A DNA stretch of 37,499 bases from the NCBI GenBank assembly GCA_015494645.1, contig WGAU01000030.1, positions 1 through 37,499 on the forward strand, read 5' to 3'. The position numbers and the translations under genes were made by a program. Position 1 is the stretch's first letter. Each line of letters starts with the position of its first letter. The notes beneath the pieces are model-generated. The model did no database searches and was not told the origin of the DNA. It saw only the letters and a program-made list of their open reading frames with translations. Below are positions 2,257-37,499 of the stretch, piece by piece. This stretch comes from Aquificota bacterium. Lineage in GTDB: Bacteria > Thermosulfidibacterota > Thermosulfidibacteria > Thermosulfidibacterales > Thermosulfidibacteraceae.

Positions 2257-3117
2257 CTACTTGGAGCTTTCCGCACTGTTTCCCGCAGGCCTGTAGGGAA
2301 CAGGTATATACTGAACAGAAGATTTGGCACTCATTGGCTGCTCGTAAAGATCCATAAGAGCGTAGATCTCCTCAGGCATATCCGTGCTTACCTTTATGCC
2401 AAGCTTTTCTAAATCATCCTTCATAAGAGGATAATCATGGGTCCATTTGCCCTGAGACAAAATCTCAGCCACCTCTTCCGCCCTTTTCTCCTCCCACCCC
2501 TTATGCATCAGTATCTCCTTAACCGTCTGCCTCATCTGCTCAAGAGCCTTCTTTGAAACATCGGCAAGTATCAGGGTGTTATCGTCTATTTCCTCAACAG
2601 GCTTCTTCTCCAATACAGAAACAATGGACGCTGCAGGCATCTGGCCGATCTGGGGATCCACCGGACCAAGCACAGCATTCTCATCCATAACTACCTCATC
2701 AGCCGCAAGGGCTATGAGGGTCCCACCGGACATGGCAAAGTGAGGAACAAAAACTGTTACCTTTGCAGGATGCTTCATCAGAGCATGGGCAATCTGCTTC
2801 GCGGCAAGAACCAAGCCACCGGGAGTATGTATGATAAAATCAATGGGCACATCCTTAGGGGTCATTCTGATAGCCCTTAAAACGCTTTCCGAATCTTCCA
2901 TGTCTATAAACTTCATAAAAGGAATACCCAAAAGGCTCCTTGACTCCTGACGGTGTATCATAGTTATAACCCGGGAGCCTCTGTTTTTCTCTATCTTTCT
3001 CATAATCTTCAATCTTGCCGCCTCAAGCATCCTCTGACGCATCAGGGGCATAAAGGAGAGGAGTATGAGAAACAGCCAGAAAATATCAAACACATTGATA
3101 TGGGGCATGTTCTGCAT
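2257..3117 (-). CDS. ClpP-fold serine protease of the SDH/S49-like family, with an N-terminal TM helix
   Basis: Motifs IIHTPGGLV and SGGTLIALAADEVVMDENAVLGPVDPQ match the serine dehydrogenase proteinase family. I prefer the start MQNMPH at 3117 because AAGGAGGT lies 7 nt upstream. The track's TTG start at 3177 would overlap the divergent gene. Confidence 0.6.
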   Translation of the reverse strand: MQNMPHINVFDIFWLFLILLSFMPLMRQRMLEAARLKIMRKIEKNRGSRVITMIHRQESRSLLGIPFMKFIDMEDSESVLRAIRMTPKDVPIDFIIHTPGGLVLAAKQIAHALMKHPAKVTVFVPHFAMSGGTLIALAADEVVMDENAVLGPVDPQIGQMPAASIVSVLEKKPVEEIDDNTLILADVSKKALEQMRQTVKEILMHKGWEEKRAEEVAEILSQGKWTHDYPLMKDDLEKLGIKVSTDMPEEIYALMDLYEQPMSAKSSVQYIPVPYRPAGNSAESSK

Positions 3118-3194
3118 GGAAACTACCTCCTTTTCTATTTTTGGACTTAAATATATATTGCAAAGCAACAGCCTCAATCCTAAAAATTATCACC

Positions 3195-4496
3195 ATGAGG
3201 ATAGCTTTTTACACAATAGGCTGCAAGCTCAACCAGTTTGAAACAGAATTTATGAAGGAGCAGTTTGAGGAGGCAGGCTGGGAAACAGTTCCTTTCAAAG
3301 AAAAAGCAGACGTTTACATCGTTAACACATGCACGGTAACAGGACAGGCAGACTCAAAATCCCGCCAGACCATAAGACAAGCCCTTAAAAGAAATCCAAA
3401 TGCCCTTGTGGTTGCCGTGGGATGCTACTCCCAAGTGGCCAAAGAAGAGCTTCTCAAGACAGGCGCCTCACTGGTGCTTGGAAATCCTGAAAAGGGAAAG
3501 ATAGTAGAACTTGTGGAACAAGCCTTGAAAGAACAAAATCTCCCCAGAGTGCATGTTTCCAACATAAACAACAGCTTCTTTCCCATGACCATAGAGAATT
3601 TTTCCGGGCACTCCCGTGCCTTTATCAAAGTACAGGACGGATGCAACAGAAGATGCCCCTACTGCATAGTCTGGAAAGCAAGAGGACCTTCCAGAAGCGC
3701 TCCCCTTGAATTGGTAATCAAAGAGGCCCAGAAACTCGCCGACGCTGGATTTGAAGAGATCGTTCTAACGGGAACCCACTTAGGATGTTACGGTGAGGAA
3801 AAGGGCTTGGATCTTGTGGATCTACTTGAAAGACTCGTTGAGATTGATTCCCTGAAAAAAATCAGACTGTCCTCCCTTGAACCAACGGAAATCACTCCGC
3901 AGCTTATAGAGTTCATGAAAGAAAACAGTAAAATAGCCCGCCACCTGCACATACCTTTACAGAGCGCAAGCAACAGAATACTCAGGCTCATGAACAGACC
4001 CTACACAAAAGAGGAATTTGAAGATCTCGTAATGAAGCTTGCTGAAGCCTTGCCCGATGTGGGCATAGGAGTAGATGTTATAGTGGGCTTTCCCACAGAG
4101 GAAGAGGAGGATTTTGAAGAAACCTACAGGCTTATAGAAAAGCTGCCCATATACTACATGCACATTTTTCCTTATTCTCCACGGCCAAACACACCTGCGG
4201 CTTACATGAGACCTCAGGTCAGGCCAGACATAAAGAGAAGAAGATGGGAAATTATGAACCAGCTAAAAGATGCAAAAAAGAAATACTTTATAGAAAGATT
4301 TATAGGCAAAGAGCTTGAAGGGGTGATAGAAAACAGGCCCGCAAGTGAAAAGGGATACTGGAGTGCCCTCACAGAAAACTATATTCCTCTCGTAGTAAAA
4401 GGCCAGTTTCCCCAGTTAGCAGGTAAAGTGAAAAGGTTCAAGCTAATCCAAAGATTGGATCACCGAGCAGAAGCGTTACTTCTAACTTGGAGATAG
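3195..4496 (+). CDS. Radical SAM methylthiotransferase of the MiaB/MtaB/RimO family (MtaB-like)
   Basis: N-terminus MRIAFYTIGCKLNQFETEF..NTCTVTG (MTTase domain). It has a CxxxCxxC radical SAM core (GCNRRCPYC) and a C-terminal TRAM-like tail. I prefer the conserved N-terminal ATG at 3195 over the track's TTG at 3141. Confidence 0.8.
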   Translation: MRIAFYTIGCKLNQFETEFMKEQFEEAGWETVPFKEKADVYIVNTCTVTGQADSKSRQTIRQALKRNPNALVVAVGCYSQVAKEELLKTGASLVLGNPEKGKIVELVEQALKEQNLPRVHVSNINNSFFPMTIENFSGHSRAFIKVQDGCNRRCPYCIVWKARGPSRSAPLELVIKEAQKLADAGFEEIVLTGTHLGCYGEEKGLDLVDLLERLVEIDSLKKIRLSSLEPTEITPQLIEFMKENSKIARHLHIPLQSASNRILRLMNRPYTKEEFEDLVMKLAEALPDVGIGVDVIVGFPTEEEEDFEETYRLIEKLPIYYMHIFPYSPRPNTPAAYMRPQVRPDIKRRRWEIMNQLKDAKKKYFIERFIGKELEGVIENRPASEKGYWSALTENYIPLVVKGQFPQLAGKVKRFKLIQRLDHRAEALLLTWR

Positions 4497-8472: not shown

Positions 8473-9435
8473 TCACAAAAGTTTTTCAAGGTCCTGCCTC
8501 TCAGGGAGCTTCAATCCCAACTTTTCAATGCACTGCCTCACATCTTCGGGCAGCGGCGAAAACACCGAGATTCTCTCGCTTCTGACGGGGTGGTCAAAAT
8601 CCAGATAGGCAGCGTGAAGCGCCTGTCTATGTATGAGATCAAGCCCTTTCCTACCGTATATAGCGTCTCCCAAGACAGGACAGCCTAAATGGTGCATGTG
8701 AACCCTGATCTGGTGAGTTCTCCCGGTGTAGATCCTCACCAAAAGCACACTAAATCTGTCGCTGGAATCAAAAACCACATACTTTGTAATGGCCTCTCTC
8801 CCCCCCTCAACCACCGCCATTTTTTTCCTGTCCACAGGATGCCTCCCAATGGGAGCATCCACCGTTCCCGAAAGAAAAGGCGGCTTCCTCCAACACACCG
8901 TAACGTAAATCTTTTTTACCTTCTTGTCTTGAAACATCCGGCTCATGATCATATGAGCCTCTTCCGTTTTCGCCACTACCATAAGGCCTGAGGTGTCCTT
9001 ATCAAGTCTGTGAACTATCCCAGGCCGTTCTCTACCTCCCAAAGGGGAGAGAACTGGAAAACGGGAGATCAACACGTTAGCCAAGGTATCCTGAGCATGT
9101 CCAGCCGCAGGATGCACCGGAATTCCAGCAGGCTTCTCAATAACAGCAAGATGCTCATCTTCAAAGTACACTTTTATATCCAGATCCCACGGCACCAGCT
9201 CCAAAGGCTCTGGTTCTGGAATAAACACCTCTACCTCAGCTCCAGCAAAAACTTTCACCCCAGCCTTTCTGGGAATTCCACCGTTTAAAAGAATATGTCC
9301 TTCGTCCAAAAGCTTTTTTATTCTGCTACGGGAAAGATCAAGGTGGGTTTCAAGGAATCTGTCAAGGCGAGTGCCAGCGAATTCATCGGAAACCCTTAGA
9401 ACCTTCCGTATACCTCTGTTCCGCAGGAGGGACAT
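8473..9435 (-). CDS. rluD: RluA/RluD-family 23S rRNA pseudouridine synthase
   Basis: An S4 domain is followed by the catalytic HRLDKDTSGLMVVAKT motif. Confidence 0.85.
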   Translation of the reverse strand: MSLLRNRGIRKVLRVSDEFAGTRLDRFLETHLDLSRSRIKKLLDEGHILLNGGIPRKAGVKVFAGAEVEVFIPEPEPLELVPWDLDIKVYFEDEHLAVIEKPAGIPVHPAAGHAQDTLANVLISRFPVLSPLGGRERPGIVHRLDKDTSGLMVVAKTEEAHMIMSRMFQDKKVKKIYVTVCWRKPPFLSGTVDAPIGRHPVDRKKMAVVEGGREAITKYVVFDSSDRFSVLLVRIYTGRTHQIRVHMHHLGCPVLGDAIYGRKGLDLIHRQALHAAYLDFDHPVRSERISVFSPLPEDVRQCIEKLGLKLPERQDLEKLL

Positions 9436-10397
9436 CTGCTCCCTTCAAGGTAAGAGAAGGTCTCAAAAAAGCCTGAACGCTTAATAAGCAACCTACCACA
9501 GGACGGGCAATAGGTGCTGTTGAGCCTGTCATCAGGCACATTTCCCACGTAAACGAACTTCATCCCTTTGGATTCCGCCAAGAATTTGGCACGGATCAGG
9601 GTATCAACAGGAGTTGGGGGCAAGCTTGTCAACTCGTAGTGTGGGTAAAACCTTGTGAAGTGCAGGGGAATATCCAAGCCAACGCTGGCAACAAAGTCGG
9701 TCAGCTCTTCAAGCTCCTCTAAGGAATCATTGTATCCAGGAATGATCAAGTTGGTCACCTCCACATGAACGCCAGATTCATAGGCAAGCTCAATCGTTTC
9801 CATGGTTGCTCTTAAAGAGCCTCCCCTGCAAACATCCCTGTAAAACTCCTCCCTTATGGATTTAAGATCAATATTCATGGCATCCACATAGGGAATCAGA
9901 TCCTCAAGAGGCTTACGGTTTATCTGGCCATTGGTAACAAGAACAATAGGCAATCCTTTAGGCTTAGCTACCTTTGCCACATCCAATAAGTACTCGTACC
10001 ATATGAGAGGCTCGGTGTAGGTAAAACACACACCTTTAGAAGCGTATCTTTTGGCAACCTCCACAAGCTCTTCTGGAGATACGTATTTTGTAGGACAGGA
10101 GTACTGAGAGATTGAGTAGTTTTGACAGTGAAGACAACCAAGATTGCATCCATTGCAAGCTACAGAGATGATATAACTTCCTGGATAAAAGTGGTACAGA
10201 GGTTTTTTCTCTATAGGATCGTTGCTTATGGTAACAAGCTCACCATAGCCTGTGGCAACAAGCTTTCCTCCTTGGTTGCTTCTGATTCTGCAGAAACCAG
10301 AATTGCCATCAGCTATAACACATTCCCTCGGGCATAGCCTACATCTGACCGTGGACTTGTCCAAGGGCTCCCAGTACTTGGCCTCAGGCTTCATCAC
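9396..10397 (-). CDS. amrS: AmmeMemoRadiSam system radical SAM enzyme
   Basis: It has [10 protein letters not shown] radical SAM cysteines and an N-terminal [18 protein letters not shown] Cys cluster, giving a PflA-like fold. It is adjacent to an AMMECR1 gene. Confidence 0.8.
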
Positions 10398-10909
10398 TTG
10401 TATCTGTTCACCGTGAACCTATAGACCTTTATAGGCTCCCCGGGTGAGATACCCGCCTTAGCCATGGCTATAGCCAACTGTTGCTCAACCGTTTCCACCC
10501 CTTCCAGATCGGGCAGAAGCAATCCCCTCCTGAACCCGGACTCCACAATGACACCGTACTTTTTGGGGTCAAGCTGAGAAAGATCAGTAACAGGCTCAGG
10601 AGTGGAAAGAACATCCACAGATATATCCAGCTCGCCAAGCTCATCTTCCCTCACCGGAGGGAACCTCGGATCCTCTGTAGCTGCAGCAATGGCGTTTCTT
10701 ATAATTTCCTGAGCCACATTTTCACAGACGGGAAGAAAAGTGCCTATGCATCCCCTCAGCTCTCCCCTTTTTTTAAGTGAAACAAAGGTTCCTGCTCTCT
10801 GCTTCATTTCCGGGATCATAAGCTCCTCTGGAGGGGGATCTATCACCCTTCCGCTCCTTATGTACTCTTCAATGGCCTTTCTTGCCAATTGAACCAAAGG
10901 ATGAGCCAT
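10394..10909 (-). CDS. amrA: AMMECR1-domain protein
   Basis: 171 aa. The motif [10 protein letters not shown]...EDPRFPPV is the AMMECR1 signature. Its stop overlaps the amrS start by 4 nt. Confidence 0.85.
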
Positions 10910-15799: not shown

Positions 15800-15995
15800 A
15801 GCCCCTTTCCTTCAATCTCTCTCTTAACGCTTTTTGCCATCTCTTAGCCCATTCAAAACGCTTAGACAATAGCAAAAACGCCAAAAGGAAAAAGGGAATC
15901 CCTGGTAAAATGGGTAGAATTGCCCCTATTACTCCCAAACCAAAAAGGACTAAGGCTACAACAATTAGAAGAATAGCTTCAAGAGACCTTTTCAA
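15762..15995 (-). CDS. Small DUF454 (YbaN-like) inner-membrane protein
   Basis: [27 protein letters not shown] matches the YbaN core. The start is TTG, with a GAGGGAAAGGA SD upstream. It overlaps both neighbours. Confidence 0.5.
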
Positions 15996-16890
15996 CGGTC
16001 ATCCTTTCCCTCAGCCTACAGAAGGCACAGGGCGGATACGTGGTAGGATACCCACAGGAAGGACACTCCACAAGCTTCGGTTTCTCTTCATCCACAAAGA
16101 GCTTGTCTTTGACCTTTAAAAACTCCCTGTAAAACCTTATCTTCGTTCCGGGAGAGTTGTACTCAATGGTATTCAAGGCCCTTTTGTAAACAAGAGTGGT
16201 TGCACCCTTAGAATAAGGACACTCATCCGAAAGGAAATTTATTCCTGTAATAAAGGCGTAAACAGCCGTCTCTCTTTCGGTAAGCTCACAAAGTGGTTTA
16301 ACTTTTCTCACAAACTTTCCTTCCTTCGGCAAAACCGGACCCTGTCTGGCCAAATACCCAATACGCCATCCCAAAAGATTGGAAAACAGCACAGCCGTTT
16401 CGTCGTTAAGATTGTGCCCTGTGGCCAACACGTCAAAGCCATTCTCATAGGCGTATTTGTTCATTATATAGCGTTTAACCATACCACAGGCAGCACAAAT
16501 GGTTCTGGTTTCTCTTTGTTTAACATCGTCTATGGAAAAGCCGTATTCTTTCTGAAGATCAAAGACCTCAAGGGGATAACCCCTCTCCTCAGCAAAGCTT
16601 TCCACTATGCCCCTTGCCTTCTGGAAGTGGTTGTTCTCCATTATACCCAAGTCTATGAACAGAGCCGTAACGTTGTAGCCAAGCCTCTTGAGAACGTCCC
16701 ACAGAACCAAGCTGTCTTTGCCACCGGACACAGCCACAAGAACCTTAGAATCCTTGTCAAACATTCTGTACTTCCTCACCACCTCTTTGACTCGCTTGAG
16801 GCAAAATTCCACAATATGTTCATGGCAAAGAGCAATGCCGAAGGACCTGACCCTTATAACAGCTTCCTTTTTACAGAGCTTACACCTCAT
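15979..16890 (-). CDS. ttuA: TtuA/NcsA-type tRNA 2-thiolation PP-loop ATPase (Fe-S dependent)
   Basis: It has an N-terminal Zn finger (CKLCKK...CHEH), the PP-loop SGGKDS, cluster cysteines (CAACG, ECPYS) and a C-terminal Zn finger (CPSCG...CAFC). Confidence 0.8.
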
Positions 16891-26802: not shown

Positions 26803-27573
26803 TTAAGACTTCTTCTCCTGTATAAACCCTTTTATTAGCTCTATGGGGATGGGAAAAACCACGGTGCTTGAGTTCTCAGCACTTATCTCCACAAGGGTCT
26901 GAAGATACCTAAGTTGAATGGCCACGGGATGCTCCCCTATAATATCAGCCGCTTCAGCAAGCCTCTTGGCCGCCTGATACTCTCCCTCTGCGGCAATTAT
27001 CTTTGCCCTTCTCTCTCTTTCTGCTTCCGCCTGCCTTGCCATGGCTCTCTGCATATCTTGAGGCAGATCAACATGCTTTATCTCCACGGTGGTTACTTTA
27101 ATGCCCCAAGGATCGGTGTGCTCGTCCAGTATACTCTGAAGCCTTGCATTGATTTTATCCCTGTGGCTGAGTATCTCATCTAATTCCACCTCTCCCAAGA
27201 CACTTCTGAGGGTGGTCTGGGCTAGCTGGCTTGTAGCATAAAGATAATCCTCCACCTCTATAACCGCCTTCTCCGGGGAGACCACCCTGAAATAAACCAC
27301 AGCGTTCACCTTTATGGAAACATTGTCCTTGGTTATAACATCCTGCGGCGGCACATCCATAACCACCGTCCTCAAACTCACCTTAACCACCTTGTCTATA
27401 AAGGGAATCACTATGATGAGCCCCGGTCCCTTGGTAGCATGGTACCTTCCAAACCTGAATATGACTCCTCTCTCGTATTCCCTCAAAACCTTAACGGCAG
27501 AGGCAATGAATATGACTCCGAAGAACAGAAAGACCAGTCCAAAGTTGCTCAGAAACAGAAAAATATACTCCAC
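26803..27573 (-). CDS. SPFH/band-7 (stomatin/prohibitin-like) membrane protein
   Basis: It has an N-terminal TM helix, an SPFH domain and a coiled-coil [17 protein letters not shown]. The start is GTG, with an AGGAGGT SD. Confidence 0.85.
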
Positions 27574-27584
27574 GATCCAACCTC

Positions 27585-28868
27585 CTAAATTTTCTTAAGC
27601 GCCGCCTCAATGGCGTAAAGGGTTCTGTCTATGTCCTTGTCAGTGTGGGCCACGGAAACAAAGGCCGCCTCAAACTGACTGGGGGCAAAATATACTCCAT
27701 TTTCCAGCAGGGCCCAGAAGAACTTGGAGTAAAGCTTAGTGTCACTCTTGACCGCATCGTCATAGGTCTCCACCGGCCCTTCAGTGAAGAATATACAGGA
27801 CATGGAAGCCACACCATTAATCCACACAGGGATGCCTTTGGCCTCAAATAGCCTTTTGGCTTCATCTGCCAAGCGTTTTCTTTTTCTTTCCAACTCCTCA
27901 TATGGGTTGTCTCTTCTGAGGATCTCCAACGTCTTTAAACCAGCCGCCATGGCCACAGGATTACCGGAAAGGGTTCCGGCCTGATACACGGGACCATCGG
28001 GAGCCACATGATCCATTATCTCTGCCCTTCCCCCATACGCACCCACAGGAAAACCGCCTCCTATGATCTTGCCAAGGCATGTGAGATCCGGCTCTACCTG
28101 ATAAAGCTTTTGCGCACCACCGTAGGAAACCCTGAATCCCGTTATCACTTCATCAAATATGAGAAGGGCGCCGTATCTTTCTGTAATCTCCCGCAAGCCC
28201 TGCAAGAAGCCTTCCTTAGGCGGAATAACCCCGGCATTACCCATAACAGGTTCCAGTATAACGCAGGCTATGTCCTCCCCGTACTTTTCAAAAAGGCTCT
28301 CCACACTGCTAAGATCGTTAAACCTCGCTAATAGAGTGTGTCTGGCAAAATCTTCGGGCACTCCAGGTGTTCCCGGAATTCCAAAGGTCAACACGCCCGA
28401 TCCTGCCTTGACCAGAAGATAGTCCACATGGCCATGGTAACATCCCTCAAACTTTACCACTTTATTCCTCTTGGTGTATCCTCTGGCCAACCTGATGGCA
28501 CTCATGGTTGCCTCAGTTCCGGAGTTTACAAATCTCACCTTCTCAATAGACGGAACCGCTTCCACCACCGCCTCTGCCATGGACACCTCAAGCTCGCATG
28601 GTATACCAAAGGAAGTTCCCTTCTCTGCAACTTCCTTTACGAAAGAGAGCACCTCAGGATGGGCGTGACCCAATATCAAAGGTCCCCAGGAACAAACGTA
28701 ATCAATATACTCGTTCCCATCCACATCGTATATCTTGGAACCCCTGCCTTCTTTTACGAAGAACGGATCACCACCAACAGATTTGAAGGCTCTTACAGGA
28801 CTATTGACACCACCGGGAAGAAACCTTTTAGCTTTTTCGTAAAGCTCTGCACTCCTTTCACGCTTCAT
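27585..28868 (-). CDS. hemL: Glutamate-1-semialdehyde 2,1-aminomutase
   Basis: [13 protein letters not shown]-terminal motif and a class-III aminotransferase fold. ATG at 28868 with an AGGAGGGG SD is preferred over 28889. Confidence 0.9.
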
Positions 28869-29902
28869 ATCAGCCCCTCCTGTTTCCATGGTTTTGGAAG
28901 GAAAATCGCCTTGTAAAGCTCCAAGGCGTATCTATCTGTCATGCCCGAAAGGTAATCCACCACTCGTCTCTCTACGCTATCTTCTTCTCTACTCCAACCT
29001 TTAATAGCCTCAGGATGCTCGCAGAAATAACAAAACAGAGACTCAAGAACACCATAAGCCTTTCTAAACTCCTCCCTCACCTGTGGAGCTCTGTAAACCC
29101 TTTCATACAGAAACTTCCTGAGTCTGTGCAAAAGGTGGAGACCTTCCTCGGACATGGAAACCCTTTGATAACCCATCTTTCTGGTGGTCTCAATCACATC
29201 TTTAACCATGGCATCTATTCGCTCACCGTGACTTTCCCCAAAAAAGGCCACACATTCTTTAGGCAAATCGGCCAACGAGATGAGCTTAGCCCTCAGGGCA
29301 TCGTCTATGTCATGGTTTACATAGGCTATTATATCCGAAATTCTTACCACCTCAGCTTCCAAGGTAAGAGGCCTGTTTTCATCTTTCGGAAGGATAGCCC
29401 CAAGTCCTTTAGAATGTTTAAGAATTCCGTCCCTCACCTCCATAGTGAGGTTCAAACCTTTCCCATTTCTCTCCAGAATGTCCACAACCCTAAGACTCTG
29501 CCGCGCATGGTGAAACCCTTCCTTAGAAAGCCTGTTCAAGACCTCCTCTCCCGCATGCCCAAAGGGAGTATGACCAAGATCGTGCCCTAAAGCTATCGCC
29601 TCTGTAAGGTCCTCGTTTAACCTAAGGGCCCTGGATATGGTCCTTGCTATCTGAGAAACCTCCAAAGTATGGGTAAGACGGGTTCTATAATGATCCCCAA
29701 GGGGTGCAAGAAAAACTTGAGTCTTATGCTTGAGCCTCCTGAAAGACTTGGAGTGTAGGATCCTATCCCTGTCCCTCTGAAAACAGGTCCTTACATCACA
29801 TTCTATTTCCTCTATCAATCTTCCAGCGCTTTCTGCACTCTTGGCTGCCTTGGGGTGTAGAAACCTCTTCTCCCAAGACTCTATCTCTTCTCTAAGGGTC
29901 AT
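28865..29902 (-). CDS. dgt: dGTPase-like HD-domain triphosphohydrolase
   Basis: The HD motif [14 protein letters not shown] matches the dGTP triphosphohydrolase family. Confidence 0.8.
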
Positions 29903-30078
29903 CTCCTCTCTTTTATGTGACGAATAAACTTCTCCCTCTCTTTAGCCTTTTCTGGAGCCACCTGTCTCATCCTGTCTACTATACTTTTTCTTTTGTGTAT
30001 TAGTTCCTCTAATCTCTCAAAAAGAAACTCCAGTTCTTCGTCCACAAGGTTCAGTTCCTTTTCTAAATCGTTTTTCAT
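29899..30078 (-). CDS. Unlisted 59-codon ORF encoding a highly charged, helical small protein
   Basis: [59 protein letters not shown]. Its ATG overlaps the ligT TGA and its TGA overlaps the dgt ATG, so both junctions are ATGA. It falls below the track's 60-aa cutoff. Confidence 0.45.
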
Positions 30079-30638
30079 CCCCCACCTCCCAGCTCTACTA
30101 TCTCAAGCTTAACGTAAAGTGCCCCTTCAGGTTTCAAAATACTCCTATAAAGGACAATATTATCCACAACAAACTCACCGTAAAGCCTCTCCTCACCACA
30201 AAAGCTTCTTATAAACCTTCTCTCATCCGGAGAAAGCCTCTTCAATCTGCCCAAAGTGATATGGGGATGAAACGCTCTTCTCTCTTTAGGAAAGCCCAAA
30301 GAGACCATGGACTTCTCAACTAAAGATTGCAGCTTAGCAAGTTCATCGGTAAGTTCAACCCCACACCAAACCACCTTTGGCCGGACAAACCCCGGAAAGA
30401 CTCCCTTACCTCTTATTCTAACCCTAAAAGGACCAACCGAACCAGAACAATCCCTAAGGGCAGAAACTATATTTGGCACCTTGACCTCTTCAACTTCTCC
30501 TAAGAATTTCAAAGTTATGTGGTAAGACTCCCTGGAAGGATAGGAAGCCTTTATACCATAGTCCTTCAACCTCATGGCCTCTTTATGCAGGGTATCCTTA
30601 ATATCCGAAGGGATATCAACTGCCACAAACAACCTCAA
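30075..30638 (-). CDS. thpR: RNA 2',3'-cyclic phosphodiesterase / 2'-5' RNA ligase (LigT/ThpR)
   Basis: Two H-x-T-x motifs are present, YHITLKF and PHITLGR, within the 2H phosphoesterase fold. Confidence 0.85.
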
Positions 30639-31828
30639 TTGAGACGCCTCCTCAACACATCCAGCGCCGCCTTAGCAAACGCCATCTTGTTGCCCAATCT
30701 ATCGTAAGAAAAGCGAAACTCAAAGCTATCCACACGCCCATCAATGCTCACACCTACATACACCAATCCCACAGGCTTCCCGGGAAGTGCCCCCGCTGGT
30801 CCGGCTATCCCTGTGGTGGAAAGCCCCACCTGGGATCCCAAAAGTTTTCTTACCCCTTCTGCCATCTGTTGGGCAACTTCATGGCTGTAAACTGTGTAAT
30901 TTTCTATGTCTTTTTTATCCACCCCAAGGAGCTTTTCCTTGATCTCATCAAGGTAAGCCACAACACCCCCTCTAAAGTACTCCGACGAACCAGAAACATT
31001 GGTTACAAGATGAGCGAGAAGTCCACCTGTGCAGGATTCTGCAACGGCAAGGGTAAGCCCTCTCTCCTCAAGGAGTCTCCCCACCACCCGGGAAAGCTCT
31101 TCATCGTCCATACCAAACAGATTCTCTCCCAAAGCCCTCCTCAAAACAGAATCTACAAGTCCCTCCAGCTTTGCATTGCCCTTCACATTCACCCACACTT
31201 CAGCGTCTCTGATCACAGTTCCCCACCTTACCCCCAACGTCCCAAGGGCTTCCTTAACCAAAGTGTTAACCTCAGACTCCTTCAAACCAAAGGTCTTGTA
31301 CACCTTGAAAAAATCGCTTCCCATAACACACAACTCCCCCACAACTTTGGGAAAGAGCTCCTTCAACTCCCAAGGCACACCAGGAAAGGCAGCCAAAAGA
31401 ATTTTATCCCTCACCCAGAAGGCAGGGGCCAGCCCCCTGGAACTCAGAACATACCGGGCCCCTTCGGGAATTAAAGCCATCCTCTTGTGCTCTTCCCTCG
31501 GTTCCCTTCCCCTTGCTTCAAACTTTGAGCGTATGTCACGCCAAATTTCCTCAACAAAGACGAGCTTCCTCCCGAGAAAATCCGCTACAGCCTCCCTTGT
31601 TCTATCGTCCTCGGTTGGCCCTAAACCACCGCACACAAACACCCCATCAGCGTAGTTTGAAAGAAACCTGAGGAGCTCCGAAATCATAGAAACATCATCC
31701 CTCACTTCCACCACATCCTCAACCTTAACTCCCACCGAAGCCAAAAAGGACTTCATAAAAGAAGCGTTGGTATTCTCCACAAGTCCGTCCACCACTTCAT
31801 CACCAACGAAAAGCAGAGAGACTCTCAT
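30635..31828 (-). CDS. cinA: CinA-family protein: N-terminal MoCF-binding domain plus C-terminal NMN deamidase (PncC-like)
   Basis: 397 aa. It carries the N-terminal GGLGPTEDD motif and a C-terminal CinA domain. Confidence 0.85.
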
Positions 31829-31837
31829 GTAAGGTCC

Positions 31838-32368
31838 TCAATAAGAAAGGGGATCGGACTCACTCCTTGCTAAATACTGAAGCCTGCTAACTCCATCAAT
31901 CTCATTAATAATTCTTGCCACCGCTGGTGGAACAAGCTCCTCCCAAGGCTCTCCCCTTAACATCCTCTCCCTTATGGTGGTGGCACAGTAAAGCTCCCTT
32001 TTGATCATCTTGAGCGGAACCACATCAACACCAGCCTCCATAAGCAGAATCTGGGTTAGGGGATTACCCGTATAAGCCCTCTTAAAAGGGGGAAAGAGGG
32101 AGCGTATATAAGAAGCCCACATGGCGTTGTTCTCTATGTTGGAGTAGGCTCCTATGTAAACTCTCTTTAAATCTATCCTTGCCTCTACCAAAGCCTCATG
32201 GATCATCCAGATACGCTCACCACAGGTGAATGGACTCTTCAAATTGTAATTAAAGTTAGCCGATCCCACAGCAATAATTATCTCGTCATTCTCCTCAAGT
32301 ATCCTTTTTACTACTTCAAGGTGGCCCCTGTGAAAGGGTTGGAACCTTCCCATGTAAAGAGCCCTCAT
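31838..32368 (-). CDS. nadM: Archaeal-type nicotinamide-nucleotide adenylyltransferase
   Basis: 176 aa. [10 protein letters not shown] is the nucleotidyltransferase H-x-G-H motif of the archaeal NMNAT type. Confidence 0.75.
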
Positions 32369-32371
32369 GGC

Positions 32372-33373
32372 CTACCTCACCACCACCCTTCCACTACCCT
32401 TAACTACGTATCCTACACAGGGATACCTGTACAGTCCAGCCCTATCCTCGGGAACGGCCACGAGAAGTCCTCCGGAAGTCTGCGGATCAAAAAGGACCAT
32501 CTCCCAATCTCCCACATTCCTTTCAAACACCACCTTCTGGGAAAAGTATTCCCTATTCCTGTATGCTCCTGCGGGAATAAGTCCCATGGAAGCATACTCA
32601 AAGGCCTCTTCAATAACAGGGATTTTCTCCACCTCCACCACAATATCAAACTCACCGGAAGAGCACATCTCAAGGGCATGGCCGATAAAGCCAAATCCTG
32701 TAACATCTGTTGCGGCAACAGCTCCCACCTCAAGCATCTTCAACGAAGCCTCTTTATTTAATTTCCTCATAGACTCAACAGCTTTCTCCACCGCCTCTTC
32801 TGAAGCAAGACCGGCCTTTATGGCAGTGGTAACTATCCCAACCCCTAGGGGCTTTGTTAGATAGAGCAAAGCACCTTCTTCAAGGGTACTGTTTCTCACC
32901 ACCCTTTCCGGATGAACCCTGCCCACAACACACAATCCGTATTTCGGCTCCTCATCATCTACACTGTGCCCTCCAACAAGGAATGCCCCTGCTTCCTTAA
33001 CCTTCCTCAAACCTCCCACCACAACGCCCCTTGCAACCTCCGCAGGAAAAGCACAGGGAAGACAGAGGATATTCAGGGCAAACCAAGGGTCTCCCCCCAT
33101 GGCGTAAACATCACTTAAAGCGTTGGCAGCGGCTATTTCGCCGAAAAGCTCCGGATCATCCACCACAGGAGTGATAAAATCAACAGTAGCTACAAGGGCA
33201 AGGTCATCCGCTACCTTTACAACTGCCGCATCCTCAAAACCACCAAGTCCGGCAAGTACCTCCTCACCTAAAGGTAAAGCCAACCCCTCCAGAACTTCTG
33301 CAAGGTCCGCCGGACCTATCTTGGCCCCTCAGCCAGAGGCCTTAACCATCTGGGTAAGCTTTATTTCCTTCAT
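32372..33373 (-). CDS. selD: Selenide, water dikinase (selenophosphate synthetase), a selenoprotein with an in-frame UGA
   Basis: The track's ORF (TTG at 33283) is truncated. Reading the same frame upstream gives [30 protein letters not shown]..., which matches the SelD N-terminus (E. coli ..IRLTQYSHGAGCGCKISP..). The TGA falls at the catalytic Cys/Sec position. ATG at 33371-33373 overlaps the yedF TGA. PurM-like domains follow. Confidence 0.85.
33304..33316 (-). other. SECIS-like hairpin 3' of the selD UGA
   Basis: The mRNA reads GGUCC-GGC-GGACC starting 12 nt after the UGA. A possible outer pairing CAAG/CUUG extends it. This is the position expected for a bacterial SECIS. Confidence 0.5.
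33329..33331 (-). other. Selenocysteine (UGA) codon of selD
   Basis: This in-frame TGA is codon 15 of the extended selD reading frame. It aligns with the active-site Cys/Sec of SelD. Confidence 0.8.
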
Positions 33374-33948
33374 ATCCTCACCACGGAAGCAGATCCCAAC
33401 AGGCTCTCAACGGTATCGTACATATTGGTCACACTTCCCACCACAAGCTTATCCTTCAAACCAAAGTACTCCAAACATGTGCCACAGGATAATATCTCTA
33501 CTCCTTCTCTCTCAAGTTCCTTCAAAACATCCGCCACTTTAGAGCCTTCGGTGGTAAGATAGACACCGCGATTTATAAAGATAAGTTTTTTAGGCTTTAC
33601 TGAAGACTCTCTCAAAGTCGCTATAAACGCCCTTATTAGAATCTGGCCAAGCTCCCTATCCTCACCCATGGAATCTGACAAAAAGATCATGACCTTATCG
33701 GATGTTGTTTTGTCTTCAACCTGAGGTAGAGAACAGGCGTATCCCTTGGTGATAATAAGGCGATACCCCCACTCCTCCTCTTTAATTTCAAGCGAGCACC
33801 CCTGCTTCTGAGCAAACCTCGCCACATTCTCCTTAGAAGCGGGATTGTCAACAAGCACCTCTACAATGCCCTCTTCAATGCCCTCAAGGGCCTCTTTGGT
33901 CATGAGAACCGGCTTGGGACAGGCACATCCTCTCGCATCAACAACCAT
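33370..33948 (-). CDS. yedF: Selenium metabolism protein YedF (TusA-like N-terminus plus DsrE-like C-terminus)
   Basis: CACPKP is the TusA-type Cys motif. The C-terminal DsrE/DsrF-like domain gives the architecture of the selD-associated YedF family. ATG at 33948 with a GGAGG SD is preferred over the track's GTG at 33954. Confidence 0.75.
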
Positions 33949-35107
33949 TTCCACCCTCCGCTATGCTTTTCACAGCATCAACGGCAAGCTTCACATCCTC
34001 TTCACTGTTGAAGGGTCCCAAAGAAAACCTAACAGTACCTTTGGGATATGTACCATAGGCCTTGTGCGCCCACGGAGCACAGTGAAGCCCAGGCCTTGAA
34101 GCGATGCCAAACTCCCTGTCAAGGACAGAAGAAACCTGGGCAGCATCCATCCCTTCTATTACGAAAGATACCACAGGCACCCGCTTATCAATCCTCTCCA
34201 GATCGGCAAAAACCCTCACTTTAGATATACCTTTAAGTCCCTCAACAAGAGACTCAAAAAGTCCCATCTCATGTTTTCTAATCTTCTCCACTCCCTTCTC
34301 AATTACCCACTCAATACCAGCTTGAAGACCTGCAAGGCCATGCACATTCAATGTCCCACTCTCAAACCTGTCCGGCAAGACATCGGGTTGCTCATCAAGT
34401 TCTGAATAACTCCCCGTACCTCCCCTGATCATAGGAGCGAGTTGATACGCAGCAGGGATGAACAGACCGCCTACCCCCTGAGGACCAAGAAGCCCCTTAT
34501 GTCCGGTGAAGACAACAAAGACATTGTCAAAATCTCCTACATCAAAGGGATAGGCGCCCAAGGTCTGGGTTGCATCAACCACCACAGGGACTTTGACCTT
34601 ACGAGCCACCTCCTCAAAAGGCGTAACCACGCCAAATACATTGCTGGCATGATTTATGCAAATAACCCTCGTCTCCGAATCCACGAGGGAAAGGATGCTT
34701 TTCGGCTCAACATAGCCCGAAGGAGAAGTCCCAGCGATACGAAGCTCTATTCCATTTCTCTTGCACCAGTACTTCAGGGGCCTTGCCACTGCATTGTGCT
34801 CCAACGCAGTGGCCACAACATTTCCCCCGCTAACCTCAGAAAGCAATCCGTAAATGGCAAAATTTGCCGCATAGGTAGCGTTCATGGTGAAGATTACACG
34901 TTCAAGATGATCCACATTGAGAAGCTCAGCGATAAGTTTTCTGCACCTATAGACAATTCTTGCCGCCTCTACAGAAAGTATGTGTCCGGAACGCCCCGGA
35001 TTTCCCCCAATACCTTTCCCGTATTCCAAAAGTTTCTCCCAAACACTTTCCGGTTTGGGGAAGGAAGTAGCAGCGTTGTCAAGGTAGCAAACGTTCAAAG
35101 CCCTCAT
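33938..35107 (-). CDS. Class-V aminotransferase: cysteine desulfurase / selenocysteine lyase-like, selD-associated type
   Basis: 389 aa. It has the PLP-lysine region [12 protein letters not shown] and a C-terminal active-site region [10 protein letters not shown]. Confidence 0.8.
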
Positions 35108-35303
35108 TGTAAACAGACTCCACTTTCAAACCTTTCAAAACTTCCATTACCCTTTCAAGAGGCTCCTCTGTCTTTATGCACAGACCACAGCCAGCAGATA
35201 TACTCTTGGGAACAGGCATAAGCTCACAAGATAACCCACACTCCAACATCCTCTCTTCCGCTTTAAGGGCCTCAGTGGTACTATGAAACACTACATAGAT
35301 CAT
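35079..35303 (-). CDS. DUF3343-family small protein (putative Se/S carrier)
   Basis: The sequence [47 protein letters not shown] fits the DUF3343 pattern of an FHST N-terminus and a C-G-L cysteine. ATG at 35303 is preferred over the track's TTG at 35369. Confidence 0.65.
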
Positions 35304-35383
35304 CTGAAGAATGAAATACTCAACCGACAACTGATTTTCAAATTGAATAGACAAAAACAGAAGGATCAAAGAATAGAAAAAAG

Positions 35384-36559
35384 CTATTTCATAAGGAGAG
35401 CAACCCTTTCGTCCAACCTATCAAGCTGGGCTTTCACATACTCCAGGGCTTTGCCTTTAAGACGCCTTTTAACCACCCTCCTCACCCTAACCCTTGAATG
35501 CCTTGCAAGGAACCTAAGCGGGTTAACGAACCTTCCGTTCACTTTTATGCGAAAGTCCAAGTGGGGACCTGTGGCAAGTCCAGACATTCCCACATAACCA
35601 ATAACCTGTCCTTTCCTCACCCTGCTACCTACTTTTATACCTTTTGCGTATCTCGATAAATGAGCGTACTGCGTAACTATACCGCCTTTGTGTTTAATCT
35701 TTATTAACCTACCGTACCCACCGTACCACCCCTTGTATATAACCACACCGTCAGCCACACTCTTAACCGGTGTTCCCATGGGAGCCGCGTAATCCACTCC
35801 CAAATGGGGCCTGACGATACCGAGGATAGGGTGAAGCCTGTGCCACGAATACCCGCTAGAAATCCTCTTATACCTCAGAGGTGCTCTCAACCAACTATCA
35901 ACCCCAATGGGCGATGCCAAAAAAGCACCTTTCAACGGATAACCCTTACTGTCGTAATAGGCCCCTTTGTAGTAAACCGCCTCCGCCTTTACCTTCTTCC
36001 CCACATATTTTGCCACAAGGATCCTACCGTACTTTTCGTTCCCAAACTCGTCCCTCAAATGCTCACATATAAAAGCATAGTAATCCCCTGGTCTGGTCCA
36101 TGTGTGAAAATCTATCCTGTGCTTGAATATGCTCACAAACTGATAGGCAAGCTTGGTGTCTCCTGTTTTCTCGTAAATAGAATAAAAGACAGAATCCCCC
36201 TCCTTGAGCACCCCGACAAATACCCTCTTTTCTATCTCCACCTTCCCTTTCTTCTCCATCACGTCCAAGGTTCTGAGATCCACATCGTAGATAACTCCAA
36301 CATCATAGGGAATCTCCAGTCGCACCGGAATTCCATTTTCCCAATCTATGAAGTACTGGAATCCTTCCCTCACGTTGTGCAGATTCACATACCTTTCAAG
36401 GGCTCCAGCAACAAGGGTGGCCTCTTCCCTGCTTATGTAATGGTCAACCAGCGAATCAACAAAACTCTCGCCCTTTTCAACCATTACCTTTTGAAGTTGT
36501 GCCTGGGATAAAACGGGAAAGAAAAGTACAAGCAAGAAAACAATTACTTTCCTAAGCAA
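35384..36559 (-). CDS. M23-family metallopeptidase (LytM-like), secreted
   Basis: The C-terminal M23 motifs are [14 protein letters not shown] and [15 protein letters not shown]. The signal peptide reads [24 protein letters not shown] at 36559 with GAGGGAGGA upstream is the probable start. The track's TTG at 36625 and the ATG at 36613 are alternatives. Confidence 0.8.
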
Positions 36560-36688
36560 GCTCCCATCCTCCCTCAAAATCAAACCACCTTGTAAAAAGC
36601 TACAGCAGGCCATCCCTCCTGTCAAGCTTGACTATTCTCACAAGAAAAGCCACACTTATCCTAATAGTTCCAAGCAGGGAGGCAAGGT

Positions 36689-37423
36689 ATGAAGAGGTTA
36701 ACCATCGCAGCAGCCATATTTCTAACTCTTTTAACGGGATGCTCATCCTATCAAGAAACCGTTCAGCCTATAAAGATACCCCAGTATCAGAGCAAAAAGG
36801 TTGAAGTTAACGGTGCCTATATCATCGCAGAAGCCTACGTTGAACCTAAAATAGCCAAAGAAAAGTTCGGCTTTGACATAAGAGGGGCGGGAATAATACC
36901 GGTGCAGGTGGTTATACAGAACAACGGCAACCACACTATTCTTATAGACGAGGAACAAACCTTCCTGATTGATGAGAAGGGTCAAGGGTGGCCTCTTTTA
37001 AGCTTTGAGCAGGTGTACAACAGGATTAAAGATAAAGTAGAAATCGGAGAAGCCGTGCAGGGAGCCAAAAAGCCTTCCATACTGGGAGCTGCAGCGGGGG
37101 CTATCATAGGAGCAGCCATAGCTATTGTTTCTGGAGAAAACGTGGGAAAAGCCACAGGAAAAGGTGCAGCAGCAGGAGCAGCAGCAGGAATTCTCATCGG
37201 AGGAGCACAATCCATGGCCCAAGCAGAGGAAAAAATCAAGGATGATCTCACCCACAAGACTTTAAGAAACAGAGTTATAGCTCCCAAGGAATTAGTTCAC
37301 GGTTTCCTATTTTTCCCAGGAAGAAAAGAAGAAGCGCAATCTGTAAAAGTGCTGAGGCTGGCCCTGAGATTTGATAACAGTCCCCACCCCAAAATAGTTG
37401 AAATACCTCTGAAAAGGATGTAA
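36689..37423 (+). CDS. Lipoprotein with a glycine-zipper membrane segment; function unknown
   Basis: It has a signal peptide with the lipobox LTGC, and a Gly/Ala zipper [19 protein letters not shown]...[26 protein letters not shown] is present. Confidence 0.65.
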
Positions 37424-37452
37424 GTCTTTCCTCAAACCAAACGGGGGTAGTA

Positions 37453-37499
37453 GTCATGATTTGGAACGACGAATACGAAACCATGCCAAGGGAGGCTCT
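37453..37499 (+). CDS. Phenylacetate-CoA ligase / coenzyme F390 synthetase-family protein, N-terminal fragment; runs off the right edge
   Basis: The fragment begins MIWNDEYETMPREA, which matches the conserved PaaK-family N-terminus. A GGGGGTAG SD is upstream. Confidence 0.5.

Follow-up and report, generated by a model that had tools for sequence, protein, structure and literature searches.

A DUF3343–Csd-like–YedF–SelD gene cluster as a probable selenium-delivery operon in an uncultured, thermophile-like bacterial lineage

Introduction

How selenium (Se) is separated from the far larger sulfur pool and delivered to the selenophosphate synthetase SelD has not yet been settled experimentally, and two of the proteins proposed to take part, YedF and DUF3343, are candidates named from gene context only. 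This question is raised by a cluster of four overlapping genes on the minus strand (35303..32372) of contig WGAU01000030.1 from an Aquificota bacterium, the analyzed stretch of which (37.5 kb; positions 1 to 37,499) is hereafter called the window. In their order of reading, the genes encode a DUF3343 protein, a pyridoxal phosphate (PLP)-dependent enzyme of the selD-associated cysteine desulfurase/selenocysteine (Sec) lyase family (hereafter, Csd-like enzyme), YedF and SelD. Here, we ask whether these genes make up a dedicated operon for Se mobilization and delivery that feeds selenophosphate synthetase, a reading which we consider probable.

YedE, YedF (TIGR03527, alternatively named FdhU) and DUF3343 (PF11823) were named as candidate Se genes from gene context in a comparative genomics study, in which adjacent DUF3343, Sec-lyase-family and YedF genes were linked to SelD within a model of Se homeostasis, with DUF3343 as a proposed Se/S chaperone and YedF as a proposed redox protein (Lin et al. 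2015, PMC5322559). The same study described a highly conserved single Cys in DUF3343, and CPxP and CGxC motifs in YedF (Lin et al. 2015, PMC5322559). In a later survey, yedF and duf3343 were within the top five genes overlapping selD open reading frames (ORFs) (Kayrouz et al. 2022, bioRxiv 10.1101/2022.04.13.486033), and reviews of 2022 and 2026 restate the roles of the candidate genes without new experiments. The cluster type and its link to selD have therefore been known since 2015, and only the present instance is new: the locus adds no new component or arrangement, and represents one more clean DUF3343/Sec-lyase/YedF/SelD instance, in an uncultured lineage. What it does show is that the four-gene unit is a conserved core and that long-form YedF is independent of an adjacent YedE.

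Results

Gene Content and Layout of the Cluster

The cluster begins with the gene for the DUF3343 protein (35303..35079, 74 amino acids), followed by those for the Csd-like enzyme (35107..33938, 389 amino acids), a class-V aminotransferase of the EF2568/SclA type, for the long form of YedF (33948..33370, or from 33954 if a GTG is taken as the start; 192 amino acids) and for the selenoprotein SelD (33373..32372, 333 amino acids), all on the minus strand. Direct reading of the sequence gave overlaps of 29 nt between the DUF3343 and Csd-like genes, of 11 nt between the Csd-like gene and yedF (17 nt with the GTG start of the latter) and of 4 nt between yedF and selD, where an ATGA places the ATG start of selD inside the yedF stop. 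These overlapping stop and start codons suggest translational coupling, through which the four proteins would be made together, and it is from the overlaps only that we infer a single transcript.

All four proteins exceeded the curated cut-offs of the corresponding hidden Markov models (HMMs), with E-values from 8e-20 to 3e-124. The DUF3343 protein matched PF11823 ('Se_S_carrier') with 70.5 bits, where 25 is the gathering score (profile positions 3–68 of 69), the Csd-like enzyme matched TIGR01977 over its full length (2–376 of 376) with 415 bits against a cut-off of 377, and SelD reached 360 bits on TIGR00476, with a cut-off of 125. YedF scored 222.3 bits on TIGR03527 (cut-off of 110; profile positions 1–194 of 194), and its TusA (PF01206, 76.2 bits) and DsrE (PF02635, 25.5 bits) domains both lay above the Pfam gathering scores. 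Judged from these E-values and from a gene order that recurs in 13 other genomes (see below), the cluster is far beyond chance. An earlier note on this DNA, made from the sequence alone, had described the four overlapping genes at the coordinates given above and had assigned their domains; the layout was confirmed on the minus strand, and each assignment passed its HMM threshold, a kind of check that the note itself had proposed.

Catalytic and Carrier Residues

The Csd-like enzyme carries the PLP-binding Lys204 within an FTGHK motif and the catalytic Cys343 within the group-II NifS-like motif RxGxHCA (SRPGLHCAP in this protein), and both motifs were invariant in 23 orthologues. Its best solved structural relatives are SufS/CsdB. 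The namesake of TIGR01977, EF2568 or SclA, is a characterized lyase encoded beside selD, with L-selenocysteine as its preferred substrate and L-cysteine as a competitive inhibitor, and NifS-like enzymes are reported to mobilize Se from Sec to SelD in vitro (bioRxiv 10.1101/2020.02.07.939272). On the exception-level model for SclA itself (NF040779), the window enzyme reached 293.9 bits, under the cut-off of 525. His104-Asn105 of the window enzyme takes the position of H145-D146, the residues on which the Sec specificity of human SCL depends, and of H99-H100 in SclA, and the His-Asn pair of this EHN motif (residues 103–105, Glu/Gln-His-Asn) was invariant in all 23 YedF-linked orthologues. YedF-linked lyases hence have an invariant His-Asn in place of the His-His of SclA and the His-Asp of human SCL. 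An H100N mutant of SclA keeps both Sec-lyase activity and inhibition by Cys, with changes below two-fold (bioRxiv 10.1101/2020.02.07.939272), so Asn105 would be compatible with a Sec lyase, although it proves nothing. Since that mutant stays active, the function of the Csd-like enzyme may resemble that of SclA. As a separate observation, the invariant Glu/Gln-His-Asn at the specificity position may mark a subgroup of YedF-linked lyases within TIGR01977.

In the long-form YedF protein, Cys10 lies in the CPKP motif of the N-terminal TusA-like domain, and a Cys155-Gly-Thr-Cys158 motif lies in the DsrE-like domain at the C-terminus; all three cysteines were invariant in 38 long-form orthologues. 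A sequence search of the PDB with YedF returned matches to the TusA domain only and no solved structure for the full length.

The DUF3343 protein has a single Cys, Cys39, located in a P-x-P-K-x-x-S-x-x-C-G loop that precedes strand 3, and this residue was invariant in 30 relatives adjoining Csd or YedF. A confident AlphaFold2 model computed with no alignment (predicted local distance difference test score of 94) showed a beta-alpha-beta-beta-alpha-beta topology, i.e., a small ferredoxin-like fold, for which a fold search returned generic nearest solved neighbors, including metallochaperone-type domains. A PDB sequence search gave no significant match, and a word-index protein homologue search gave two matches, the protein itself and another at 82% identity. 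The protein is described here as a candidate Se/S carrier, a role suggested by gene context only.

The frame of selD is interrupted once, by an in-frame TGA at 33331..33329 that corresponds to codon 15 (Sec15, in the context KASG-U-GAKIG). The segment SG-U15-GAK18 represents the Sec/Cys-x-x-Lys loop that is catalytic in selenophosphate synthetases, and the TGA was found at the identical aligned position in 20 of 20 selD genes adjoining yedF relatives. The closest solved structure is that of A. aeolicus SelD (2yye). The UGA in selD implies that the machinery for Sec decoding exists in the host. In the window as a whole, no Rfam family was detected at gathering thresholds and no tRNA by ARAGORN, and hence no selC is located within it.

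A small hairpin of 5 bp, (A)GGUCC-GGC-GGACC(U), lies at 33303..33317 on the minus strand, 15–29 nt past the first base of the UGA, roughly where a bacterial selenocysteine insertion sequence (SECIS) element is expected. An alignment of the 20 selD genes gave it as the consensus structure (GGNCC-GGN-GGNCC), with no compensatory changes; the same region encodes a conserved G-P-x-D-L, so that coding constraint overlaps the structure, and the single-sequence fold of the window hairpin had a z-score of only −1.8. These features are consistent with the candidate core of a bacterial SECIS element, without amounting to proof.

Conservation of the Four-Gene Unit and of Its Neighbors

The window was compared with stretches from other public genomes and scaffolds, designated loci L001–L050. 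It is 99.94% identical to an 87-kb metagenome scaffold from ENA and also matches contigs of the NCBI metagenome-assembled genome (MAG) GCA_027040215.1. The order and strand of DUF3343-Csd-YedF-SelD, including the UGA in selD, were kept in 13 other species-representative genomes (L003–L008 and L010–L016). The genomes sharing the cluster are titled Aquificales, Aquificota, Deferribacteres, Thermodesulfobacteriota or 'bacterium' MAGs, with YedF identities of 56–72%. SelD directly followed YedF in 11 of these 13 genomes, while a gap of about 0.7 kb separated the two genes in L011 and L016. The gap in L011 holds an extra ORF of 147 amino acids (10451..10894, plus strand) with no NCBIfam match, and that in L016 is of similar size. 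DUF3343-Csd-YedF was also present in L009, whose contig ends before any SelD. Three further loci carried it too, one from Pelotomaculum terephthalicicum (L028) and two from other MAGs of Bacillota type (L026 and L030). Overall, Csd was encoded immediately upstream of YedF, with an overlap or a small gap, in 17 loci, and a truncated Csd-YedF pair was found in L032; YedF-SelD pairs without an adjacent Csd occurred in L018–L020 and L048.

The neighboring genes behaved differently. Upstream of the cluster, and separated from the DUF3343 gene by 80 nt, lies a gene for an M23 peptidase of 413 amino acids (36625..35384, minus strand; PF01551, 113.9 bits), which was found at this place only in L003, L004 and L006–L008. 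Downstream, also on the minus strand, selD is followed by genes for an archaeal-type NMNAT (32368..31838; TIGR01527, 197 bits against 181.2), CinA (31828..30635; TIGR00200, 269.6 bits against 243.15) and LigT/ThpR (30638..30075; TIGR02258, 143.2 bits against 65.7), a series shared only with L003–L008, the last of which ends within NMNAT. Elsewhere, the flanks were occupied by UvrC (L011, L012 and L016), TyrA/HisC (L010) or EmrA (L013 and L015). Because the core persists while its flanks vary between lineages, we regard the four genes as a conserved unit.

With regard to the three downstream genes, the earlier note had placed them in the same overlapping chain as the cluster. They are present, as stated, although the chain is not continuous, given that gaps of 3 nt and 9 nt separate SelD from NMNAT and NMNAT from CinA, respectively; overlaps of 4 nt return at the CinA/LigT junction and at those of LigT with an ORF of 59 amino acids and of this ORF with a dGTPase gene. 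From their distribution, NMNAT, CinA and LigT are lineage-specific neighbors in a genome where overlaps between stop and start codons are routine. A functional link of these genes to Se was considered and rejected, as they are not conserved outside the closest clade.

Absence of YedE

The earlier note had also drawn attention to the absence of YedE, which it took to be the usual partner of YedF. Six-frame translations were searched with a YedE HMM built from seeds verified at 457–490 bits on TIGR04112 (cut-off of 200), and no match was obtained in the window, in L001, whose sequence extends to 10 kb upstream of Csd, or in L003–L016. In the available flanks of the four-gene cluster in the 13 other genomes, and of the incomplete one in L009, no YedE was present, and the main ORFs of the window, when scanned against NCBIfam, yielded none either. 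The 10 kb upstream of Csd encode the M23 peptidase, a 244-amino-acid protein that fits no known family, a pair of AMP-binding ligases resembling phenylacetate-CoA ligase, an ACT protein, an IorA-like oxidoreductase, HtrA and an epimerase. The 32 kb downstream of the cluster consist of housekeeping and flagellar genes, and all genes called in L050, which extends about 7.8 kb beyond the start of the window, are flagellar. The adjacent yedE that, according to the earlier note, would have made this the ordinary arrangement was thus absent from the window and from the flanks provided by L001 and L050.

The notion of a usual partnership did not survive a wider comparison. In a sample of 47 loci from GTDB species representatives with long-form YedF relatives, which is biased toward relatives of the window YedF, YedE was encoded within the available flanks in nine, belonging to Dehalococcoidales, Dehalococcoidia, Syntrophomonadaceae and one Bacillota MAG. 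The gene directly after YedE encoded a short, single-domain TusA-like protein of about 66 amino acids in eight of the nine, and DUF3343 in L048; long YedF was never the direct neighbor of YedE (0/9). Judged from this sample, the missing YedE is neither unusual nor a feature that makes the cluster special. The candidate Se genes were previously found to co-occur in a limited number of organisms only (Lin et al. 2015, PMC5322559).

As an additional observation, the Se clusters of Dehalococcoidales and Syntrophomonadaceae contained YedE, usually the short TusA-like gene, DUF3343, a further gene that we call X, YedF and SelD. In L019, gene X (2582..3484, plus strand) encodes 300 amino acids with weak ribokinase-fold similarity, matching the YjeF C-terminal domain with 33 bits and ThiM with 32 bits, both below the cut-offs. 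Gaps of about 1.2 kb, like the one that holds gene X in L019, were seen in L020, L023, L037 and L048.

Discussion

A Possible Route of Selenium to SelD

If, as seems probable, the cluster is an operon dedicated to Se mobilization and delivery, the PLP enzyme would take Se from free L-selenocysteine, possibly originating from recycling or adventitious synthesis, and would hold it as a perselenide on Cys343. Trans-perselenidation would then transfer it to Cys39 of DUF3343 and/or to Cys10 in the TusA-like domain of YedF, with the CGTC pair of the DsrE-like domain acting as an acceptor or reductant. Finally, the Se would reach Sec15, located in SelD's mobile N-terminal loop, and be converted into selenophosphate, which would be used for making Sec-tRNA and possibly for other Se traits. 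The scheme draws on gene identities, catalytic and carrier residues, a UGA-encoded Sec in SelD and a four-gene order across lineages that were all directly observed; what we infer is in which direction and order Se is transferred, which role each carrier plays, that the route is specific for Se over sulfur and that the genes are co-transcribed. The passage of Se from a lyase through one or more carriers to SelD, as sketched in the earlier note, agrees with the model that had been published from comparative genomics (Lin et al. 2015, PMC5322559).

Several points weigh against this assignment. The Csd-like enzyme scores below the SclA model and has Asn in place of His100, so that its specificity for Sec is only putative. 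Classically, TusA, DsrE and NifS-like proteins relay sulfur. A scan for promoters and terminators over positions 27000..37499 returned fewer sites than shuffled sequence and gave no support for a single transcript, and the searchable literature yielded no experimental study of either long-form YedF or DUF3343. Furthermore, a Se-specific DUF3343 subfamily could not be defined, YedF occurs in a few organisms that lack SelD, and a role in sulfur metabolism was not excluded for some of the candidate genes (Lin et al. 2015, PMC5322559).

A first alternative is a relay for sulfur, in which a cysteine desulfurase loads persulfide on the TusA-like, DsrE-like and DUF3343 proteins for the thiolation of tRNA or cofactors, and SelD is an incidental neighbor. 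TusA and DsrE domains do traffic sulfur, as do SufS/CsdB, the closest solved relatives of the PLP enzyme; DUF3343, like YedF, is present in some organisms without SelD, with sulfur roles not excluded (Lin et al. 2015, PMC5322559); and a tRNA thiolase, TtuA, is encoded within the window (15979..16890). TtuA, however, belongs to an unrelated block of genes at a distance of more than 15 kb, and SelD comes after YedF in 13 species-level genomes while every other neighbor changes. The genome-wide statistics, in which yedF and duf3343 are among the genes most often overlapping selD (10.1101/2022.04.13.486033), speak for Se as well, and the only characterized member of TIGR01977 is Sec-preferring and Cys-inhibited (bioRxiv 10.1101/2020.02.07.939272). 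On balance, we judge a relay for sulfur to be distinctly unlikely. Somewhat less improbable, albeit still rather unlikely, is that the locus handles Se by redox chemistry or detoxification: the CGTC motif of YedF would bring selenite or species of the selenotrisulfide type down to the level of selenide for use by SelD, or would sequester excess Se, with DUF3343 as a buffer and the PLP enzyme only recycling Sec on the side. The invariance of CGTC, the Se-related role in redox chemistry or detoxification proposed for YedF from its CGxC motif (Lin et al. 2015, PMC5322559) and the YedF-SelD pairs that have no adjacent Csd (L018–L020 and L048) would all be in line with this. Against it stands the Csd gene directly upstream of YedF in 17 loci, as well as in the truncated L032 pair, which argues that lyase and YedF act together, and the locus encodes no reductase partner or exporter.

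It could also be that the four genes form no functional unit whatsoever, and that a compact genome has simply strung unrelated housekeeping genes together, head-to-tail and with stops and starts that overlap. The style of overlap indeed extends to the unrelated junctions of CinA/LigT, LigT/59-amino-acid ORF, 59-amino-acid ORF/dGTPase and dGTPase/HemL, and the whole string of 11 genes is syntenic in the closest clade. In distant lineages, however, only the four-gene core survives and all flanks differ, and independent published statistics tie these families to selD (PMC5322559; 10.1101/2022.04.13.486033), for which reason we hold mere packing to be highly improbable.

Returning to delivery of Se as the preferred reading, a stricter version of it can be proposed, namely that this lineage lacks YedE altogether and supplies SelD solely by a closed perselenide relay with no free selenide. 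Se would run from Cys343 of the Sec lyase to Cys39 of DUF3343 or Cys10 of YedF, from there to the CGTC pair of YedF and on to Sec15 of SelD. We put this forward tentatively, as a doubtful but not far-fetched extension. If it were true, this compact, thermostable four-gene operon would be a minimal complete relay and a good system for a first demonstration. Proteins of this type, which look thermophilic in this lineage, could be suitable for testing a perselenide relay by biochemical or structural means.

Comparison with Known Systems

The closest known arrangement is the block of Slackia heliotrinireducens (Shel_25430-25450, with selD as Shel_25360; PMC5322559), in which the same three families occur in the same order and are linked to SelD, and whose modelled roles (chaperone, lyase and redox/carrier protein) are those proposed here. 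Unlike in Slackia, SelD in the window directly follows YedF with the ATGA overlap and carries Sec, the neighborhood is devoid of a second DUF3343, a YedE or a SirA-like gene, and the host belongs to an uncultured, thermophile-like lineage with MAGs titled Aquificales/Aquificota as its nearest relatives. In Slackia itself, YedE (Shel_25130) has the SirA-like Shel_25120 as its top partner, and DUF3343/Sec-lyase/YedF form a separate block (PMC5322559).

The sclA (EF2568)-selD pair of Enterococcus faecalis shares with the window the TIGR01977 family, the RxGxHCA motif, the PLP lysine and the adjacency of selD. It differs in that the window enzyme falls short of the SclA model (293.9 against 525 bits) and has Asn105 for His100, and in that the E. 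faecalis pair, whose SelD is an 'orphan', acts for a molybdenum hydroxylase that depends on Se, whereas the selD of the window contains a UGA. Pairs of YedE with a short TusA-like protein have in common with the window YedF a TusA-like Cys-Pro-x-Pro domain implicated in Se use; in the loci compared here, the partner is a single-domain protein of about 66 amino acids (8/9), in contrast to the two-domain TIGR03527 protein of 192 amino acids encoded in the window. We take E. coli yedE-yedF and C. jejuni fdhT-fdhU to be related examples of such pairs.

The IscS/TusA/DsrEFH system is a persulfide relay of sulfur trafficking, of which the TusA-IscS complex has been solved (3lvj). As in that relay, a PLP-dependent desulfurase is combined in the window with a TusA-fold carrier and a DsrE-fold acceptor bearing conserved cysteines. 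Unlike in that relay, the TusA and DsrE parts are fused in one polypeptide, the DsrE-like part of which has a CGTC motif, and what the operon encodes as the end acceptor is SelD in place of a thiolation enzyme.

Further Observations on the Window

The cluster forms part of a same-strand string of 11 genes (27585..36625, minus strand) that comprises the genes for the M23 peptidase, the four Se proteins, NMNAT, CinA, LigT, the 59-amino-acid ORF, dGTPase and HemL. This string was syntenic only in the closest clade (L003–L008), and most of its junctions overlap or are less than 15 nt apart. The 59-amino-acid ORF (29899..30078, minus strand), which is rich in Glu and Lys and overlaps both LigT and dGTPase by 4 nt, had 59–68% identity to counterparts in L003, L004 and L007, no Pfam match and a single NCBIfam match, which lay below the threshold. 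Divergent from the M23 gene, the 244-amino-acid ORF mentioned above (36689..37423, plus strand) begins like a lipoprotein (LTGCSS in the N-terminus) and contains a stretch rich in Gly and Ala; both public copies have it annotated as a gene, and no Pfam family matches it.

Four ORFs antisense to the cluster region (34442..35221, 32198..32761, 32367..32864 and 33123..33542) had no Pfam match and were taken as non-coding shadows. The copy in the NCBI MAG (L002) shows an apparent split of YedF at about 9872..9884, which is caused by a run of N and not by a frameshift. Finally, at 9396..10909 on the minus strand of the window, a gene for an AmmeMemoRadiSam protein A (AMMECR1) adjoins that of a radical SAM enzyme with no Memo-like protein B alongside, the neighbors of the pair being RluD and a polyprenyl synthase.

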